Of a stretch of 17,046 bases of DNA, positions 4,119 to 14,856 are shown in pieces. The stretch comes from a virus (Duplodnaviria; Heunggongvirae; Uroviricota; Caudoviricetes): the IMG/VR virus record IMGVR_UViG_2534682108_000005, positions 1-17,046 of that record. One strand, given 5' to 3'. Position 1 is the stretch's first letter. Each line of letters opens with the position of its first letter. The notes beneath the pieces were generated by a model. The model was not told the origin of the DNA and ran no database searches. It saw only the letters and a program-made list of their open reading frames with translations. Both the position numbers and the translations under genes were made by a program.

Positions 4119-4176
4119 AAAAAGGGCGGCAGAGCAGTCACGGAGTAAAACTGATACCGCCAAACGTCACCAGAAA
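4119..4176 (-). ncRNA. dicF: DicF small RNA (ftsZ-targeting antisense sRNA of Qin-type prophages) with its intrinsic terminator
   Basis: Minus-strand sequence UUUCUGGUGACGUUUGGCGGUAUCAGUUUUACUCCGUGACUGCUCUGCCGCCCUUUUU matches the DicF sequence as I recall it, including the 3' GC-rich stem and U-run. It sits between the ydfC-like and dicB-like genes as in Qin. Confidence 0.8.
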
Positions 4177-5320: not shown

Positions 5321-5611
5321 TTAACAGGTTTTGTTTGGATACTGTCTTCGTGAGTGAACTACATTTACGATCTCGATGTTAGATGCTGTTACTCGGTAAA
5401 GTATTATATAGTTAGGATGAGTCACTATCTCACGAAGACTTGGAACTCTTTCGCTCGGTGGGTACAGATAAGGGTGTTCAGTAAGTGACAAAACTGATGT
5501 TTCAATGCGTATTTTTAGTCTACGTGCAGCGGGAGGGTTTTCCTTAGCAATATAGGCTACGATCTGACGTAAATCATCACGTGCAGAAGGTAGCCATAAA
5601 ATGGGCAGCAT
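5321..5611 (-). CDS. parE: ParE/RelE-superfamily toxin (96 aa) of a type II toxin-antitoxin module
   Basis: Size, basic C-terminus and overall pattern (...HPNYIILYRVTASNIEIVNVVHSRRQYP) resemble ParE toxins. Its start overlaps the stop of the upstream small gene by 1 nt, the typical antitoxin-toxin arrangement. Confidence 0.7.
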   Translation of the reverse strand: MLPILWLPSARDDLRQIVAYIAKENPPAARRLKIRIETSVLSLTEHPYLYPPSERVPSLREIVTHPNYIILYRVTASNIEIVNVVHSRRQYPNKTC

Positions 5612-5802
5612 TACTCACTCCTGTTCGTTGCAGCTAATTGAGCAATAAGGTTTTCCATTTCAGCCATTACTTCGTCATGTGGAATTGCAGGACGGGGATC
5701 TGAGAGGCTTGCTGCCACTTTGGCTCGCAACCATTCGTTATAGCTGTTTTCTTGTTCGACTGTTTCAAATTCAGAAATTATCGGGGAAAGGGCTGTACTC
5801 AT
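5611..5802 (-). CDS. Antitoxin (63 aa) cognate to the ParE-like toxin; PaaA-like
   Basis: Small acidic protein (MSTALSPIISEFETVEQENSYNEWLRAKVAASLSDPRP...) directly upstream of and coupled to the toxin gene. It resembles, from memory, PaaA-type antitoxins of the three-component paaR-paaA-parE systems of E. coli O157 prophages. Confidence 0.6.
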   Translation of the reverse strand: MSTALSPIISEFETVEQENSYNEWLRAKVAASLSDPRPAIPHDEVMAEMENLIAQLAATNRSE

Positions 5803-7183: not shown

Positions 7184-8224
7184 ATGGCTAATGCCTGGCT
7201 CAGATTATGGCATGACATGCCAAATGACCCTAAGTGGCGAACAATTTCCAGGGTGTCAGGACAGCCAATCGCAACAGTGATGGCTGTGTATATCCACCTT
7301 CTGGTGAGCGCGTCACGAAATGTCACGACATGTCACGGCGTGTCACTACGTGGTCACATTGATGTCACAACGGAAGATTTAGCAAGTGCACTTGATGTGA
7401 CGGAAGAAGTAATTGATTCAATTTTGCAGGCGATGCAGGGGCGGGTGCTTGATGGAGATTTAATCACTGGATGGGAAAAACGCCAGGTAGCGAAAGAGGA
7501 TAACGGCAATGTTTCGCAAACCGCGAAATCCCCGGCAGAGCGTAAGAGAGCACAACGCGAGAGGGAAAAATTACGAAAACAGAATGAGGGGTGTCACGAT
7601 GAGTCACGCATATGTCACGACATGTCACTACGAGTCACGACAGATAAAGATACAGATAAAGAATTAAACCCCACACATAACGCGCGCGTGCGCGAGAGTG
7701 CTCCGACCAGTGAATTGAACGGTACGCCGTTGCAGGCAGCGGAACCTGATTACCAGGAAAGCCTGAGCGAACCCATCGGGAAGTTTCCGATGGCCGGTGG
7801 CTGGCATCCGTCGCCGGATTTTCGACGGCGGGCTGCACTGTGGGGAGTGGCTCTGCCGGAGCCTGAATTTACACCTGCTGAACTTGCCGCCTTCAGGGAC
7901 TACTGGGCAGCGGAGGGGAAAGTTTTTACGCAGGTTCAGTGGGAGCAGAAATTCGCCCGTCACGTAAATCACGTCAGGGCGCAGGTTAAACCAGTCAGCA
8001 AGGGGGGGCGTCATTCAGCAGCACCAGGTGGCACCGCATCACGGGCAGTTCGGGAAATTCGGGCAGCACGTGAGCAGTGGGAACGTGAAAACGGATTTGT
8101 CAGCGACGGAAACGGCGTGGAAGCTGTGGGAGCTCATGGGGGAGGTTTATTCAAACCGCTGGACTCAGAAGAACGGGGCCGCACCTTCGAAGCTCTGGAT
8201 TGCCCAGATTGGCGCGATGACTGA
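7184..8224 (+). CDS. Replication initiator (O-like) with a DnaT-like C-terminal region; contains the putative origin iterons
   Basis: N-terminus MANAWLRLWHDMPNDPKWRTI is typical of phage replisome-organiser N-domains. Two clusters of GTCAC repeats lie inside the gene and a P-like gene follows. Start ambiguous between GTG 7178 and ATG 7184. Confidence 0.6.
   Translation: MANAWLRLWHDMPNDPKWRTISRVSGQPIATVMAVYIHLLVSASRNVTTCHGVSLRGHIDVTTEDLASALDVTEEVIDSILQAMQGRVLDGDLITGWEKRQVAKEDNGNVSQTAKSPAERKRAQREREKLRKQNEGCHDESRICHDMSLRVTTDKDTDKELNPTHNARVRESAPTSELNGTPLQAAEPDYQESLSEPIGKFPMAGGWHPSPDFRRRAALWGVALPEPEFTPAELAAFRDYWAAEGKVFTQVQWEQKFARHVNHVRAQVKPVSKGGRHSAAPGGTASRAVREIRAAREQWERENGFVSDGNGVEAVGAHGGGLFKPLDSEERGRTFEALDCPDWRDD
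7312..7368. repeat. Iteron array 1: six GTCAC-core repeats at 10-11 bp spacing
   Basis: cgTCACgaaa tgTCACgaca tgTCACggcg tgTCACtacg tggTCACatt gatgTCAC; cores at 7312, 7322, 7332, 7342, 7353 and 7364. Confidence 0.7.
7593..7670. repeat. Iteron array 2 (five GTCAC-core repeats) followed by an AT-rich tract with a tandem CAGATAAAGA repeat; candidate replication origin
   Basis: GTCAC cores at 7593, 7603, 7614, 7624 and 7633, then cagataaagatacagataaagaattaaa. Direct repeats plus an adjacent AT-rich region inside the initiator gene mirror lambda ori architecture. Confidence 0.6.
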
Positions 8225-8678
8225 ACAGCAAATCCGGCTGGTCTGCCGTCAGTGCATGGACCGCTGCCGGGCGGGTGAAACGTGGCCCCCGGACCTGGCT
8301 GAGTTTGTTGCGCTGATTTCGGAGAGTGGGGCAAATCCATTTGGTCTTACGGTGGATGCCGTGATGGAAGAGTACCGGCGCTGGCGCAATGAATCCTGGC
8401 GGTACGACGGGAGTGATAAATACCCGTGGCCACAGCCTGTGCTGTACCACATTTGCCTCGAGATGCGCACCAGAGGGATTGAACGTCAGATGACTGAAAG
8501 TGAGCTGAAACGACTTGCAGAACGACTGTTGACCAAATGGGCAAAGAATGTTGGTAACGGCATGAGTGTTCCGCCAGTGCGACGACAACTGGAAGGGCCA
8601 AAACACCCGCCAGGGCCAACGCCAATTGAGTTACTGAAACAGGAATATGAGCGCCGGAAAGCGGCTGGTTTTGTCTGA
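8028..8678 (+). CDS. Replication protein P-like (lambda P family, helicase loader)
   Basis: C-terminal half aligns by eye to lambda P (YPWPQPVLYHICLEMRTRG...TESELKRLAERLL versus lambda YPWKSNAHYWLVTNLYQNMR...TDAELRRKAADELV). The ORF begins with GTG at 8028 and overlaps the O-like gene; alternative starts are ATG 8136 and ATG 8217, the latter overlapping the O stop. Confidence 0.6.
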   Translation: MAPHHGQFGKFGQHVSSGNVKTDLSATETAWKLWELMGEVYSNRWTQKNGAAPSKLWIAQIGAMTEQQIRLVCRQCMDRCRAGETWPPDLAEFVALISESGANPFGLTVDAVMEEYRRWRNESWRYDGSDKYPWPQPVLYHICLEMRTRGIERQMTESELKRLAERLLTKWAKNVGNGMSVPPVRRQLEGPKHPPGPTPIELLKQEYERRKAAGFV

Positions 8679-8711: not shown

Positions 8712-9425
8712 ATGGAAACCGTTTTTGACGCACTGAAAGCACTGAAAAGAGCCTCTTCACAGGAGGTGTCGGCCCGCCTTGGAATCAGCCGCGAAGATGC
8801 TGTCAACGAGCTGTGGAAGCTGAAACGCCGTGGTGAAGCAGATAACAAGGGGTCGATGTGGTGGCTGACGATTGAGGCAACTGAAATGGTCACAAAAACC
8901 ACTGCGGAGATGCTGATTAACGCAATTGAACAGCATGGTCCTCAGTCGGCTGACGAACTGGCGTTAATGTTCGGGATTACCTCCCGCCGGGCGAATTCAA
9001 CGCTGGCAATGGCAATAAGCAAAGGTCGTCTGATTCGAGTAAATCAGAACGGTAAATTTCGTTACTGCCTGCCGGGCGATAATTTACCAGCAGAGCCGAA
9101 AGCTGCATCGGTAACGGAAACTGCTGGTAAAGCCTTTCCTCAGACAGCAGGTGTTGCGTTACCAGTCCGGGAAGCGGAAACACAGGAAGAAATTAAAACT
9201 GAAAGTGTGGCGGTCACAGTGCAGTCACAGCCGTCGTTCACCAGAAAGCATCCGGATAGTCTGATTTTACCATCGCTGCATGTGGCTAACCGCGAACTGC
9301 GCCGGGCAAAAGGTCAGGTTCAGAAGTGGGAGCGAGTCTGTGCTGCGCTGCGTGAGCTGAACAAGCACCAGGATATTGTTCGACAGATTACTGATTCATC
9401 CTGTTGTGTTGCATCAGAAAAGTGA
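8712..9425 (+). CDS. Hypothetical phage protein (237 aa) with two tandem winged-helix-like repeats
   Basis: GGAGG SD 9 nt upstream of the ATG at 8712. Internal repeat pattern L..A......S..ELA..LGIS....A...L.KL...G at residues ~5-50 and ~70-115. No catalytic motif recognised. Confidence 0.5.
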
Positions 9426-9440
9426 TTGCAGGGGACGCTG

Positions 9441-9857
9441 ATGGCAAGAGTATTTACACCAGAAGAGCGGGAAAAAATTAAGGGGCAGGTTGTTGAACTC
9501 GTACGCCAGAGCGGTCGCGAGACGTTACGGCAACTGGAAGCTAAAACAGGTGCAACAAGATATCTGGTGAGCGTTCTCGCCAGAGAGCTGGTTGCCAGTG
9601 GTGATGTATACAACTCTGTCTACGGGTTATTTCCGTCTGAACAGGCTCGTAAGGACTGGCAAAATGCCCGAAAAAAACTCACTAGGGCAAGGGCGAAGAA
9701 ACCCGCTGTGGTTGATCCGGGCCTTATCTGGTCATTAGATGACGGAGAAATACGTCGCTACGACAGGCGTCATAATATAATTTGTAATGAGTGCCGTAAC
9801 AGTGAAGTGATGCAGAGAGTTTTGATATTTTACACAGGAGTAATGATGGAGCAGTGA
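9441..9857 (+). CDS. Hypothetical phage protein (138 aa) with one winged-helix-like segment and a C-terminal Cys-containing tail
   Basis: AGGGGA SD before the ATG at 9441. The segment VELVRQSGRETLRQLEAKTGATRYLVSVLARELVASGDV resembles the repeats of the preceding gene. The 3' end runs into the AT-rich island. Confidence 0.45.
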   Translation: MARVFTPEEREKIKGQVVELVRQSGRETLRQLEAKTGATRYLVSVLARELVASGDVYNSVYGLFPSEQARKDWQNARKKLTRARAKKPAVVDPGLIWSLDDGEIRRYDRRHNIICNECRNSEVMQRVLIFYTGVMMEQ

Positions 9858-10221
9858 AAACAATATGAAATCTTTAGCTTCTGGTATTGTAACAGATGGG
9901 AAAAGTGTAGATATATGGAAATTGCATAGCAATAATTCGCAGCATGGATGCTATTCGTATGTTGATAAAGTGGTCCCAGTATGCGAGTGTAAGAGTTGAA
10001 CCAGTTCCAACTAAGAAATTGGGGGGATAATATAGAAGGTGGCTAAGTGAATGTGCTTATGATTATCTGAAAAACAAATGGAATGTTTTAATGGGTCTAA
10101 GAACACAGCAATGCACAAATTAGGGGTTATCTTTTACTGTGCTTATTAATATGCTCAATGACCCATTAGGATTGGTGTCAGTTATGTTAGCCAGAGTGAT
10201 AAAGTGATTATATCTCTGCTG

Positions 10222-10995
10222 TTATATGCTGAAATGAGTAATACTATTCCAGAGTGCAGCAGCGAAAGTCTCCTGATGATTGAGTTCTGGAAATTGTACG
10301 ACAGAAAAATTACTATATTTTTCTGCTAAAATATTTTTCAAAACAGATTCTGCTTTAATGGCTTCAGGATATAAAGATGTGGAGTAATCAAGGCTAAGAT
10401 CTCCGCTAAGTAAGCATATACTTTTAGTATGCTTTGATTCTGGCATGTCATTTTTTATGATCTTGATGATTCTTTCATCCTGCCATAGAAGTGATGGTGC
10501 TGAGATATAATAATAGTTAAAACATGAATTATTTTTTAAACAATCAAGAACAAAAATAGCACCTAGTGAGTGTCCCCATATACCGAGTTTTGAGGATGTC
10601 GGAACAATGGTGCTGACCCAGGGCATGATCTGAGTTAGCAATAATTCTCGGAAACTCTGACTTCCTCCACCAGTGAAGTAGATCCATGCTGGTTTGGAGT
10701 TATCAATAATAGCATTTTCACCACCAGGAGTGTAATCGTAAGCACGGCGGTGAATATTAAGCTTATCCAAAGATTCGTAACTCAGTGTAACTAACACTGG
10801 TGGATTGGGTAGTGCATCAATAACAGGAAGAATATCAGAAATGTTATTGTTGGCGCTATTTCCATCAAGTATATAAAGAGTTGTATTATTTTTTTTAATG
10901 TTTTTTGGAGTAAAAACGCATATTTTATATTTTGTGTCATAGTTAATTGAGTTAAATATGCGTGTTTGACAATGAATGTCCATGTGTTTAGTCAT
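10222..10995 (-). CDS. Alpha/beta-hydrolase serine esterase (257 aa) in an AT-rich island; cargo gene on the opposite strand
   Basis: GHSLG nucleophile-elbow motif (G-x-S-x-G) in LGIWGHSLGAIFVLDCL, consistent with the esterase D/Fes-like fold. No signal peptide seen. GGGGAG SD upstream. Markedly lower GC than flanking phage genes. Confidence 0.7.
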   Translation of the reverse strand: MTKHMDIHCQTRIFNSINYDTKYKICVFTPKNIKKNNTTLYILDGNSANNNISDILPVIDALPNPPVLVTLSYESLDKLNIHRRAYDYTPGGENAIIDNSKPAWIYFTGGGSQSFRELLLTQIMPWVSTIVPTSSKLGIWGHSLGAIFVLDCLKNNSCFNYYYISAPSLLWQDERIIKIIKNDMPESKHTKSICLLSGDLSLDYSTSLYPEAIKAESVLKNILAEKYSNFSVVQFPELNHQETFAAALWNSITHFSI

Positions 10996-11102
10996 ACGTT
11001 CTCCCCATGAGCATTAAAGGATTATTAAGATATGCTATGTCACTGATGAACAATTTGTTGTATGAATCTAGGTTTTTTATCTACCTCCATTATGATTTAA
11101 TC

Positions 11103-11121
11103 GCTGATATATGTTATCAGC
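11103..11121. promoter_or_regulatory. Inverted repeat GCTGATA-n5-TATCAGC in the promoter region of the esterase gene
   Basis: 7-bp perfect inverted arms separated by 5 bp, about 110 bp upstream of the esterase start, next to a candidate -10 (CATAAT on the minus strand). Confidence 0.4.
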
Positions 11122-11699
11122 AAAGGTACATCGTTACTGTTTTACTTGTCAATACATTTGATATTGATTCTCGTTCGCATCGTTTGTTCAGGGATTTGAA
11201 GACAGATAACTGCTATGTCAATGAACCAACCCACAGTCCAACGTACTTCAGCAAAATATGGCGTCGGGATATAGCACCCTGATATTCACCACGGCAAACA
11301 CACGCCGAGAGTGTTTTTTTATCGTCGTATGTACGTGCACATCTGAATAATGGCAGGCGAATGTGATAGCCGAAAAGCTCACCGTGCGGTGATCCGGTAG
11401 TTTCACCCTGTACGTCTCATAACCCGATGATTGAGACCTTAAGCAAAACAATAACAAGGGAGCGTCATTATGACCACTCAAACTGATTTCATATTGGCGA
11501 TGTAATGGGAAGTTAAGTAGAATGGCAGCGGGTGCTTGAGGCTATCTGTCTCAGGCATGAACACCAAAAGGCAGATAGAGAAAAGCCCCAGTTAACATTG
11601 CGCGTCCGGCAAGACGCTTAACATTAATCTGAGGCCATATCTATGCTCTACACACGTAGGTTAGCCTCTTACGTGCCGAAAGGCAAGGAGAAGCAGGCT

Positions 11700-11855
11700 A
11701 TGAAGCAGCAAAAGGCGATGCTAATCGCCCTGATCGTCATCTGTTTAACCGTCATTGTGACGGCACTGGTAACGAGGAAAGACCTCTGCGAGGTATGAAT
11801 CCGAACCGGCCAGACGGAGGTCGCTGTCTTCACAGTCTACGAACCTGAGGAGTAA
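11700..11855 (+). pseudogene. hokD: hok/gef-family type I toxin gene (HokD/RelF-like) interrupted by an in-frame TGA at codon 33
   Basis: Translation MKQQKAMLIALIVICLTVIVTALVTRKDLCEV, then TGA at 11796-11798, then in frame IRTGQTEVAVFTVYEPEE and TAA at 11853-11855. This matches HokD as I recall it, with the stop where Arg is expected. AGGAG SD 9 nt upstream. Structured leader (CTATCTG...CAGATAG) upstream and a 3' stem-loop at 11862-11884. Confidence 0.7.
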
Positions 11856-14364: not shown

Positions 14365-14385
14365 CCACCGGAAGGTGGTTTTTTT
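14365..14385 (+). terminator. Rho-independent terminator (tR'-like) downstream of the candidate late promoter
   Basis: Stem CCACC, loop GGAA, stem GGTGG, followed by TTTTTTT. Confidence 0.65.
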
Positions 14386-14508
14386 GTGTCCGCGATATAC
14401 AGTAGCGCAATAAATTCGCTGGTGGTTATTAATACCGTTCTTTCAGCTTGCTGGCTTTTTCGACAAGAGTTATTGGTGTGTCACGTTAACCGGAAAAGGG
14501 AAAAAGAC

Positions 14509-14706
14509 ATGCTAAAACAGCAGGATATGACAGAAACCGCCAGAGTGGTGTTTAATGAATTAAGCGTTACCGAACCGGCGACAGTCGGGGAGATAGCGCA
14601 GAATACTTACCTTTCACGCGAACGCTGCCAGTTAATACTGACCCAGCTTGTTATGGCGGGTCTGGCAGACTATCAGTTCGGTTGTTACAGACGCCTTCAG
14701 TCCTGA
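14509..14706 (+). CDS. Small putative winged-helix DNA-binding protein (65 aa)
   Basis: First ATG with a purine-rich SD (AAAGGGAAAAAG). The segment VVFNELSVTEPATVGEIAQNTYLSRERCQLILTQLVMAGLAD resembles the wH repeats in the post-P genes. Followed by a terminator. Confidence 0.4.
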   Translation: MLKQQDMTETARVVFNELSVTEPATVGEIAQNTYLSRERCQLILTQLVMAGLADYQFGCYRRLQS

Positions 14707-14715
14707 AGGCTTTTT
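14692..14715 (+). terminator. Rho-independent terminator
   Basis: Stem GCCTTCA, 4-nt loop, stem TGAAGGC, followed by TTTTTTATTT, overlapping the stop of the small gene. Confidence 0.6.
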
Positions 14716-14856
14716 TATTTGTGGTAAATGGGCGGCTGGTGGGTGTTAGGGGCACTCACCAGCCATCTGCTCATGCGTCTGGATCACAAGCAAACCTCAG
14801 GCCCATTGCTTTGCGCAAAAGCAGAATGAGCCTATCAGAGACAAGCTTAATGATCC

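Follow-up and report, generated by a model that had tools for sequence, protein, structure and literature searches.

As Toothman and Herskowitz reportedly found in 1980, the ren gene of bacteriophage lambda confers resistance to Rex exclusion. It is transcribed from pR together with O and P, and in a two-hybrid assay the Rex proteins interact with O and with Ren (Thomason et al., bioRxiv 10.1101/2021.04.19.439022). The gene is non-essential (PMC10695390) and overlaps the end of P. A second system is ydaW (b1361) of the Rac prophage in Escherichia coli K-12, which lies directly after a helicase-loader gene and was picked up by overexpression as a candidate blocker of the retron-Sen2 toxin RcaT (bioRxiv 10.1101/2020.06.22.160242). 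YdaW also appears in the literature among predicted MarR-type transcription factors (PMC9308461), and DUF977, the Pfam family to which gene 2 of the present locus belongs, has been assigned to the winged helix (WH) by COMPASS/HHpred (Kinch et al. 2009, PMC2686095). At the level of architecture, two consecutive WH domains are known from ScpB, the SelB C-terminal domains, ESCRT-II EAP30 and UFL1/DDRGK1, and WH domains of the MarR, TrmB and IclR type are found in DNA-binding regulators. Here we compare with these systems two adjacent genes of a lambdoid prophage, together with a third, smaller gene further downstream.

Gene order and coding status of the locus

The window, by which we mean the whole stretch of 17,046 nt that was analysed, is 100% identical over its 17 kb to a prophage in E. 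coli O157:H16 strain Res13-Lact-PEA12-26 (NZ_CP062876.1), and its genes are arranged as in a Rac/Qin/Stx-like lambdoid prophage. The left part carries an integrase pseudogene, xis, a RecE-like exonuclease gene, dicB and ydfABC, relBE, cI-like and cro-like genes and YdaT, and genes follow for a DnaT-like O protein (7184-8224) and a lambda-P-like helicase loader (8217-8678). Next come gene 1 (8712-9425, 237 aa) and gene 2 (9441-9857, 138 aa, the DUF977 gene). To their right lie a minus-strand, low-GC alpha/beta-hydrolase island, hok/sok, DUF968, RusA and a DUF1133 Q-like gene, and the right end of the window holds a 65-aa gene (14509-14706), a DNA methyltransferase gene and tRNA genes (Ile/Arg/Arg).

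RefSeq CDSs agree with the coordinates of all three genes, and each has a Shine-Dalgarno sequence, which for gene 1 is a GGAGGA located 8 nt upstream of the start. Variable sites at codon positions 1/2/3 number 69/47/128 in gene 1, 10/17/45 in gene 2 and 5/3/16 in the 65-aa gene; since the variation among relatives falls mostly at third codon positions, we regard the three CDSs as real plus-strand genes. The same pattern gave no support to the antisense ORFs of the region, and an Rfam scan of 8712-9857 found no RNA family. The locus consists of two adjacent, conserved early-operon accessory genes in a Rac/Stx-like lambdoid prophage, an ordinary accessory module. Its genes belong to established DUF and PHROG families, RefSeq-identical proteins occur on many contigs, and the WH character of the families has already been published.

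In order to describe the neighbourhood of gene 1, loci were counted over 80 viral contigs carrying the 237-aa gene. Gene 1 starts less than 150 nt downstream of a helicase-loader gene in 69 of the 71 evaluable loci, and the loaders are of two unrelated types, lambda-P-like in 47 loci and DnaC-like (YdaV) in 22. Of the 80 loci, 38 have gene 2 after gene 1, and 41 have other small ORFs in its place. In the window, P and gene 1 are separated by 33 nt and genes 1 and 2 by 15 nt. We found no convincing promoter, terminator or operator-like repeat around P, gene 1 and gene 2, the counts of such signals lying within shuffle expectation; near gene 1 or gene 2 there were no operator-like inverted or direct repeats. 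Because the gaps are short and no signal intervenes, we infer that pR drives both genes in one transcript with O and P, the replication genes.

Gene 1 as an intact YdaW protein with two predicted winged-helix domains

The product of gene 1 (8712-9425, plus strand) is identical to RefSeq WP_000450632.1. It belongs to Pfam DUF1627 (PF07789), which it matches at 2.9e-83 and 277.7 bits (gathering threshold 28.1) over aa 72-226, and it matches PHROG 630 at 1.4e-113. K-12 YdaW is 58% identical to it over aa 1-135, a span which includes both WH domains, and like gene 1 it is encoded directly after a helicase-loader gene; the K-12 protein differs in being truncated (186 aa) and without the conserved C-terminal helix. 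On sequence grounds, gene 1 encodes an intact version of the YdaW protein of the Rac prophage. We note that the ydaW allele recovered as a retron blocker is the truncated one, with both WH domains and without the C-terminal helix, and that it is only 58% identical to the gene 1 product.

An AlphaFold2 (AF2) model divides the protein into four parts, all encoded on the plus strand. The first WH domain, WH-A (aa 1-53, 8712-8870), is predicted by AF2 and hhalign and has helices at H4-11/H16-23/H27-39 (pLDDT 72-81); the three helices are of the right length, but the wing (aa 44-61) has a pLDDT below 50. Across the family WH-A is acidic, with a median net charge of -2 and a pI of 5.0, and its helix 3 is variable. 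The second domain, WH-B (aa 62-120, 8895-9071), was recognised by AF2 and Foldseek and shows a complete WH topology, with H65-75/H80-87/H91-103 and a hairpin E108-112/E115-119 at a pLDDT of about 85. WH-B is basic (family median net charge +4, pI 9.9), and its conserved basic residues R92, R93, K104, R106, R109 and K115 lie where helix 3 begins and in the wing. Both modules display an 8-residue helix 2, a 3-residue turn and a 13-residue helix 3, with equal spacing in the AF2 model. A linker of about 58 residues (aa 127-184, 9090-9263) is predicted to be disordered, with a pLDDT of 33-38 and no secondary structure, and it leads into a conserved long C-terminal helix (aa 185-235, 9264-9416) modelled as a single helix at pLDDT 74-82. 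This helix, which is matched by PHROG 29124 and PHROG 1888, likely acts as an oligomerisation or partner-binding module, as we infer from the model. That full-length YdaW-family proteins have two WH domains in tandem is an addition of the present analysis and is missed by the Pfam DUF1627 model, which begins at residue 72, misses WH-A and cuts into WH-B.

A profile search for the 237-aa family over 1.84 billion representative proteins returned 174 clusters. Both WH domains together with the C-terminal helix occur in 38 of them and both WH domains without the helix in 16; the helix is found with one WH and WH-B missing in 20 clusters and by itself in 21, and other isolated pieces were recovered too. 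In a Foldseek search with the model of the whole protein, the best solved matches were tandem-WH proteins (ScpB, SelB, DIP2311, UFL1/DDRGK1), and many single WH domains were also retrieved, MarR/ArsR-type domains being among the matches to WH-B. The likeness to tandem-WH proteins extends to an alignment over both gene 1 domains (2z99, 152 columns, E 6.5e-4) and to weak matches with Pfam EAP30 and the NCBIfam PheRS-alpha N-terminal model, each covering both domains. However, there is no membership at the sequence level, the rmsd of 10-18 A indicates that the relative orientation of the domains is either not common to the proteins or not predicted, and the known proteins are without the linker and C-terminal helix of gene 1. 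Against Pfam MarR_2 the protein reaches 15.3 bits, under the cutoff of 27, so it is not a MarR family member by this model. A fold search of BFVD returned generic phage WH proteins only, and sequence searches of the PDB, with single proteins as well as family profiles, gave nothing below E 0.2. Zalpha (Z-DNA-binding) domains also appeared among the fold matches; they are minimal 60-aa WH domains and were set aside as offering no functional lead.

Gene 2 as a member of the lambda Ren family

Gene 2 (9441-9857, plus strand) encodes a 138-aa protein, named LygF in phage records, which is a member of Pfam DUF977 (PF06163; 5.7e-25, 88.4 bits against a threshold of 22.1, aa 1-133). It has a full-length match to PHROG 142 at 7.9e-44 (profile positions 1-113 of 116), and the lambda Ren sequence of J02459 falls into the same family at 1.6e-41 (positions 11-110 of 116). 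The two proteins therefore share a full-length profile match to a family which PHROG names "Ren-like exclusion protein", and related-phage annotations for gene 2 read either LygF or Ren-like exclusion protein. The N-terminal part carries a WH-like segment (aa ~12-64, 9474-9632, plus strand), recognised by profile links and by the published assignment of DUF977; aa 1-62 match PHROG 142 at 1.1e-20 and PHROG 2391, a "DNA binding protein" family, at 5.4e-5. The C terminus displays a Ren motif (aa 110-132, 9768-9836, plus strand), CxECRxSxxMxRVLxxY, which reads NIICNECRNSEVMQRVLIFY in gene 2 and NLVFKECRQSAAMKRVLAVY in lambda Ren. BLASTP aligns it to lambda Ren aa 73-92 with 50% identity (E 2e-5), and hhalign recovers the same match with a probability of 81% (E 1.2e-5). 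The gene 2 product is basic, and its linker very basic.

In common with lambda Ren, gene 2 has the full-length PHROG 142 match, a predicted N-terminal WH-like segment and the C-terminal motif, and as expected of the Ren family its place in the early rightward operon is likewise shortly after the replication genes. The differences are that Ren has 96 aa and the gene 2 product 138 aa, with an extra basic linker; that pairwise identity between the two is detectable in the C-terminal 20 residues only; that Ren, unlike gene 2, falls below every Pfam cutoff; and that in this locus the loader gene and the Ren-like gene are separated by a YdaW-family gene. By its profile and motif matches, gene 2 is homologous to lambda Ren and is recognised as the ren equivalent of this locus.

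Relationship of the four winged-helix segments

The first-pass annotation had proposed that four copies of one WH-like module are spread over the three genes, namely two in gene 1 (here P1a and P1b, corresponding to WH-A and WH-B), one at the N terminus of the DUF977 protein (P2n) and one in the 65-aa protein (P3). The WH-like character was borne out for all of them, by AF2 for WH-B and the 65-aa protein, by AF2 with a low-confidence wing for WH-A, and by profiles and the published assignment (PMC2686095) for the DUF977 N-terminus; for the gene 1 modules and the 65-aa protein, structure prediction did not yield unrelated folds but one layout of helices, completed by a clear wing in WH-B and the 65-aa protein. 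Shuffled controls, which had been suggested as the check on the repeat, gave a mixed answer. At the level of raw sequence, Smith-Waterman scores exceeded 1000 shuffles in 2/6 pairs (P1a-P3, z=5.2; P1b-P3, z=3.2), the P1a-P1b score was inside the shuffled range (z=1.65), and every pair with the DUF977 N-terminus gave a z of ~1 or less. All of the raw-sequence alignments lie in one helix-turn-helix register.

Homologue searches returned, among the matches listed, only proteins of at least 77% identity (99-100% for lambda Ren), and shallow profiles built from such close relatives gave weak hhalign signals. A search of representatives supplied diverse homologues for the gene 1 family only, and the WH-A and WH-B profiles were built from 36 diverse proteins carrying both domains, which avoids cross-contamination. 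Compared with 40 column shuffles, these family profiles beat every shuffle in 5/6 pairs. The strongest link is between WH-A and WH-B (probability 93.5-94.5%, E 8e-8 to 2e-7, 46-49 columns, z=11.7), and the two segments of the 237-aa protein are indeed related, as had been suggested. WH-B and WH-A are both linked to the DUF977 N-terminus (E 4e-4 to 8e-4 and z=8.0 for the former, z=6.3 for the latter), the profile links to the gene 2 WH being modest in probability (23-34%). The 65-aa family gives z=9.4 with WH-A, at an ambiguous probability of 43-50%, z=3.3 with WH-B and no signal with the DUF977 N-terminus (z=-0.6, E 0.48); non-WH control segments remained at background (E 0.01 or worse). Since column shuffling destroys helical periodicity, these z-scores place the resemblance beyond chance but not beyond a common fold.

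The PHROG library of 38,880 phage families was used as an outgroup test, in which the diverse WH-A and WH-B sequences were scanned singly. Ren PHROG 142 was matched by 19/30 WH-B sequences (best E 5.3e-6), with 4 more matching a second Ren-like PHROG, and by 9/31 WH-A sequences; a MarR-type PHROG was matched by only 6 WH-B and 6 WH-A sequences. Likewise, the WH-B HMM gave 13.3 bits to the gene 2 N-terminus and 5.5 bits to Ren, and 0/300 shuffles exceeded either score. None of 55 members of the 65-aa family matches the Ren or YdaW PHROGs or the MarR-type PHROG. Profile comparisons place WH-A, WH-B and the Ren-type WH (P1a, P1b, P2n) in a specific related group; the link of both YdaW domains to the Ren WH, and the exclusion of the 65-aa protein from the group, are modest additions of this analysis. 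The proposed four-copy family held for those three segments; a single family over all four was not recovered, the 65-aa protein standing outside it with a common fold only. WH-A and WH-B no longer show a repeat at the DNA level, and some relatives have a single WH together with the C-terminal helix; the two domains probably arose by an ancient internal duplication, and evidence for this event is likewise added here.

That the repeats reflect a chance resemblance of helical segments is very improbable, and this reading is largely refuted. It draws on the raw Smith-Waterman scores (z <=1.65 for P1a-P1b and whenever the DUF977 N-terminus is one of the pair) and on the P2n-P3 pair, which is without signal even by profiles. 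Against it stand the single WH topology which AF2 gives for three segments, with a low-confidence wing in WH-A, the profile scores above all column shuffles in five of the six pairs, the non-WH controls at background and the independent cross-matches to PHROG 142.

The 65-aa protein belongs to a separate family

The 65-aa gene (14509-14706, plus strand) encodes a stand-alone WH protein, which in size is a bare WH domain, recognised by AF2, Foldseek and PHROG. AF2 predicts a WH topology, H5-16/H26-33/H37-49 followed by E53-56/E59-62, at a pLDDT of 90. All Foldseek matches are WH domains (probability 1.0, TMq 0.7-0.8), and the solved structures among them are OhrR/MarR, IclR and the N-terminal WH domains of methyltransferases. 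The protein matches PHROG 331 at 1e-37, is acidic to neutral, and constitutes a separate family that shares with the YdaW and Ren WH domains a common fold only. NCBI labels its relatives "TrmB family transcriptional regulator"; it scores 18.1 bits against Pfam TrmB (PF01978), under the cutoff of 25.6, and 14.7 bits against Pfam MarR_2, under the cutoff of 27, so it is a member of neither family, and an NCBIfam scan gave no model above cutoff. The three genes, otherwise "hypothetical", are hereby placed in known families, and the TrmB label on the 65-aa protein is unsupported at the Pfam threshold.

The gene is located at a fixed distance, 212-227 nt (~220), downstream of at least four unrelated Q-type genes, and it adjoins the late promoter. 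A methyltransferase gene follows it in 63 of the 76 evaluable loci and is absent in the other 13. A scan found a terminator-like hairpin and T-run at 14693-14720 on the plus strand, GCCTTCAGTCCTGAAGGC then TTTTTTATTT, which overlaps the stop codon of the 65-aa gene; the hairpin motif after the gene is kept in 63/80 related loci.

Proposed function and alternative readings

Taken as a whole, the explanation which combines the identity of the two genes, their architecture and a Ren-like role is the one we consider probable, with some reserve. Its functional part is more tentative: the proteins encoded in the ren slot may serve early in infection as accessory factors that counter exclusion in the manner of Ren, in place of regulating the transcription of particular operons, a reading we prefer to the others discussed below but hold with clear doubt. 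In such a mechanism, the basic WH-B and the basic Ren-type WH with its linker would bind nucleic acid, and the acidic WH-A together with the C-terminal helix would contact protein partners or mediate oligomerisation. Both proteins together would then neutralise or evade abortive-infection systems of the host or of a prophage; alternatively, both could modulate the O/P replication complex, on which abortive-infection systems act. Two observations speak against parts of this mechanism. WH-B has a conserved basic helix 3 and wing, as expected of a sequence-specific DNA binder, which leaves a regulator role some probability, and genes 1 and 2 are separable, 41/80 loci being without gene 2, so that joint action is not required.

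The first-pass annotation had held that the standard lambdoid gene set does not account for the modules, and had offered them as possible regulators of the esterase island, of replication or of the methyltransferase. The former statement turned out to be wrong, gene 2 being of the Ren family and lambda carrying ren at that position. As for the latter, it is unlikely that the WH modules are small sequence-specific transcription regulators of the esterase/hydrolase island, the methyltransferase or phage genes. In prokaryotes no DNA-binding fold is more common than the WH, helix 3 and the wing of WH-B carry conserved basic residues, and the NCBI TrmB name on the 65-aa relatives, the methyltransferase after the 65-aa gene in 63/76 loci and the listing of YdaW among predicted MarR-type factors (PMC9308461) all point in that direction. 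The resemblance to MarR/TrmB/IclR-type wHTH regulators, however, lies in the WH fold of WH-B and the 65-aa protein (TMq 0.7-0.8, probability 1.0); the TrmB and MarR Pfam scores are all under their gathering thresholds, the proteins have no MarR dimerisation helices and no TrmB or IclR effector domains, and an acidic character, as in WH-A and the 65-aa protein, is unusual in a DNA-binding regulator. Moreover, there are no operator-like repeats near genes 1 and 2 and no promoter of its own between P and gene 1, and in 13/76 loci no methyltransferase accompanies the 65-aa gene. A regulatory role towards the esterase island in particular found no support, the island being a separate low-GC insertion which accompanies gene 1 in 1/80 loci. 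The most defensible remnant of a regulatory role is a possible link between the 65-aa protein and the methyltransferase.

A role as replication accessory, in which gene 1 and the Ren-like protein would act on O, the loader, DnaB or origin DNA and tune initiation or the switch of replication mode, appears rather unlikely to us from the analysis. It would agree with the position of gene 1 directly after the loader gene, of either type, in 69/71 loci; with best structural matches that include the tandem-WH protein ScpB, tandem WH domains being found in other DNA-handling complexes; and with the description of ren as "likely involved in DNA replication" and the Rex-O and Rex-Ren two-hybrid interactions (bioRxiv 10.1101/2021.04.19.439022). 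Yet the two unrelated loader types argue against a specific loader partner, the structural matches, at an rmsd of 10-18 A, reflect the domain type only, ren is non-essential for lambda (PMC10695390), and Ren is dispensable for P-lethality and replicative killing (PMC3640518). A replication-accessory role overlaps with counter-exclusion, and the two are not fully exclusive.

Returning to the counter-exclusion role of the ren-slot proteins, the YdaW-Ren WH link, the Ren-Rex interaction and the recovery of ydaW as a candidate retron-toxin blocker together raise the testable idea that this slot encodes anti-abortive-infection factors. A broader form of it, which we regard as a speculative and rather improbable extension, is that the post-loader slot of lambdoid phages holds a diversifying clade of Ren-type WH proteins devoted to counter-defence against abortive infection. 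YdaW/DUF1627 would in that case be a tandem-duplicated Ren-like WH with an added oligomerisation helix, and the anti-Rex activity of lambda Ren and the retron-Sen2 block by K-12 YdaW would be expressions of one mechanism. The gene families concerned are common in prophages of E. coli, Shigella and Salmonella, Stx-type phages included.

The 65-aa winged-helix gene and the late-promoter leader

Across the related loci (80 viral contigs carrying the YdaW-family gene), the gene for the stand-alone 65-aa winged-helix protein (14509-14706) lies at a fixed spacing of 212-227 nt downstream of a Q-type antiterminator gene, and the same spacing is kept behind antiterminator genes of at least four unrelated kinds. 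A terminator-like hairpin 3' of the winged-helix gene (14693-14720) is conserved in 63 of the 80 loci. Between Q and the winged-helix gene lies another hairpin, accompanied by a T7 run (14366-14386, CCACCGGAAGGTGG), which is a candidate for tR'. The winged-helix gene appears to be the first ORF in the late-promoter leader.

Downstream lies a DNA methyltransferase gene (14857-15906), found after the winged-helix gene at 63 of the 76 related loci that could be evaluated and missing from the other 13. The pairing is frequent but separable; a functional link could lie behind it. RNA genes were called from Rfam matches above the gathering score, and on the plus strand 3' of the methyltransferase these comprise three tRNAs (Ile, Arg, Arg; 15956-16202) and the STnc100 sRNA (16315-16512), a layout typical of Stx-type phages, despite which no stx genes are present in the window. 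The remaining Rfam calls are the DicF sRNA (4124-4175, minus strand) and the sok antitoxin RNA (11530-11705, plus strand), which adjoins a hok gene at 11700-11798.

The YdaW-family gene and its downstream slot

The Pfam DUF1627 model (PF07789) spans only aa 72-226 of the YdaW-family protein (gene 8712-9425); since it starts within the second winged-helix domain and leaves out the first, the Pfam boundaries do not show the tandem winged-helix architecture. The slot just 3' of this gene is mosaic: at 41 of the 80 loci (L003-L082) other ORFs replace the Ren-like gene (9441-9857), most commonly a 105-aa ORF, which begins MSGWKTWCRAEIMILRQCAGT and has two stretches resembling an HTH, or a 74-aa ORF. 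In the window, a low-GC insertion (9860-11350, GC 31-39%) immediately follows the Ren-like gene and carries an alpha/beta hydrolase gene on the minus strand (10222-10995); because only 1 of the 80 related loci has this insertion, it looks like a moron.

Elsewhere in the window, a RelE/RelB toxin-antitoxin pair (5321-5802, minus strand) adjoins the cI-like repressor within the immunity region. At the left end (1-709) lies the edge of an IS66 tnpA gene, and the integrase gene there is a truncated pseudogene. Excision is probably defective in this prophage.
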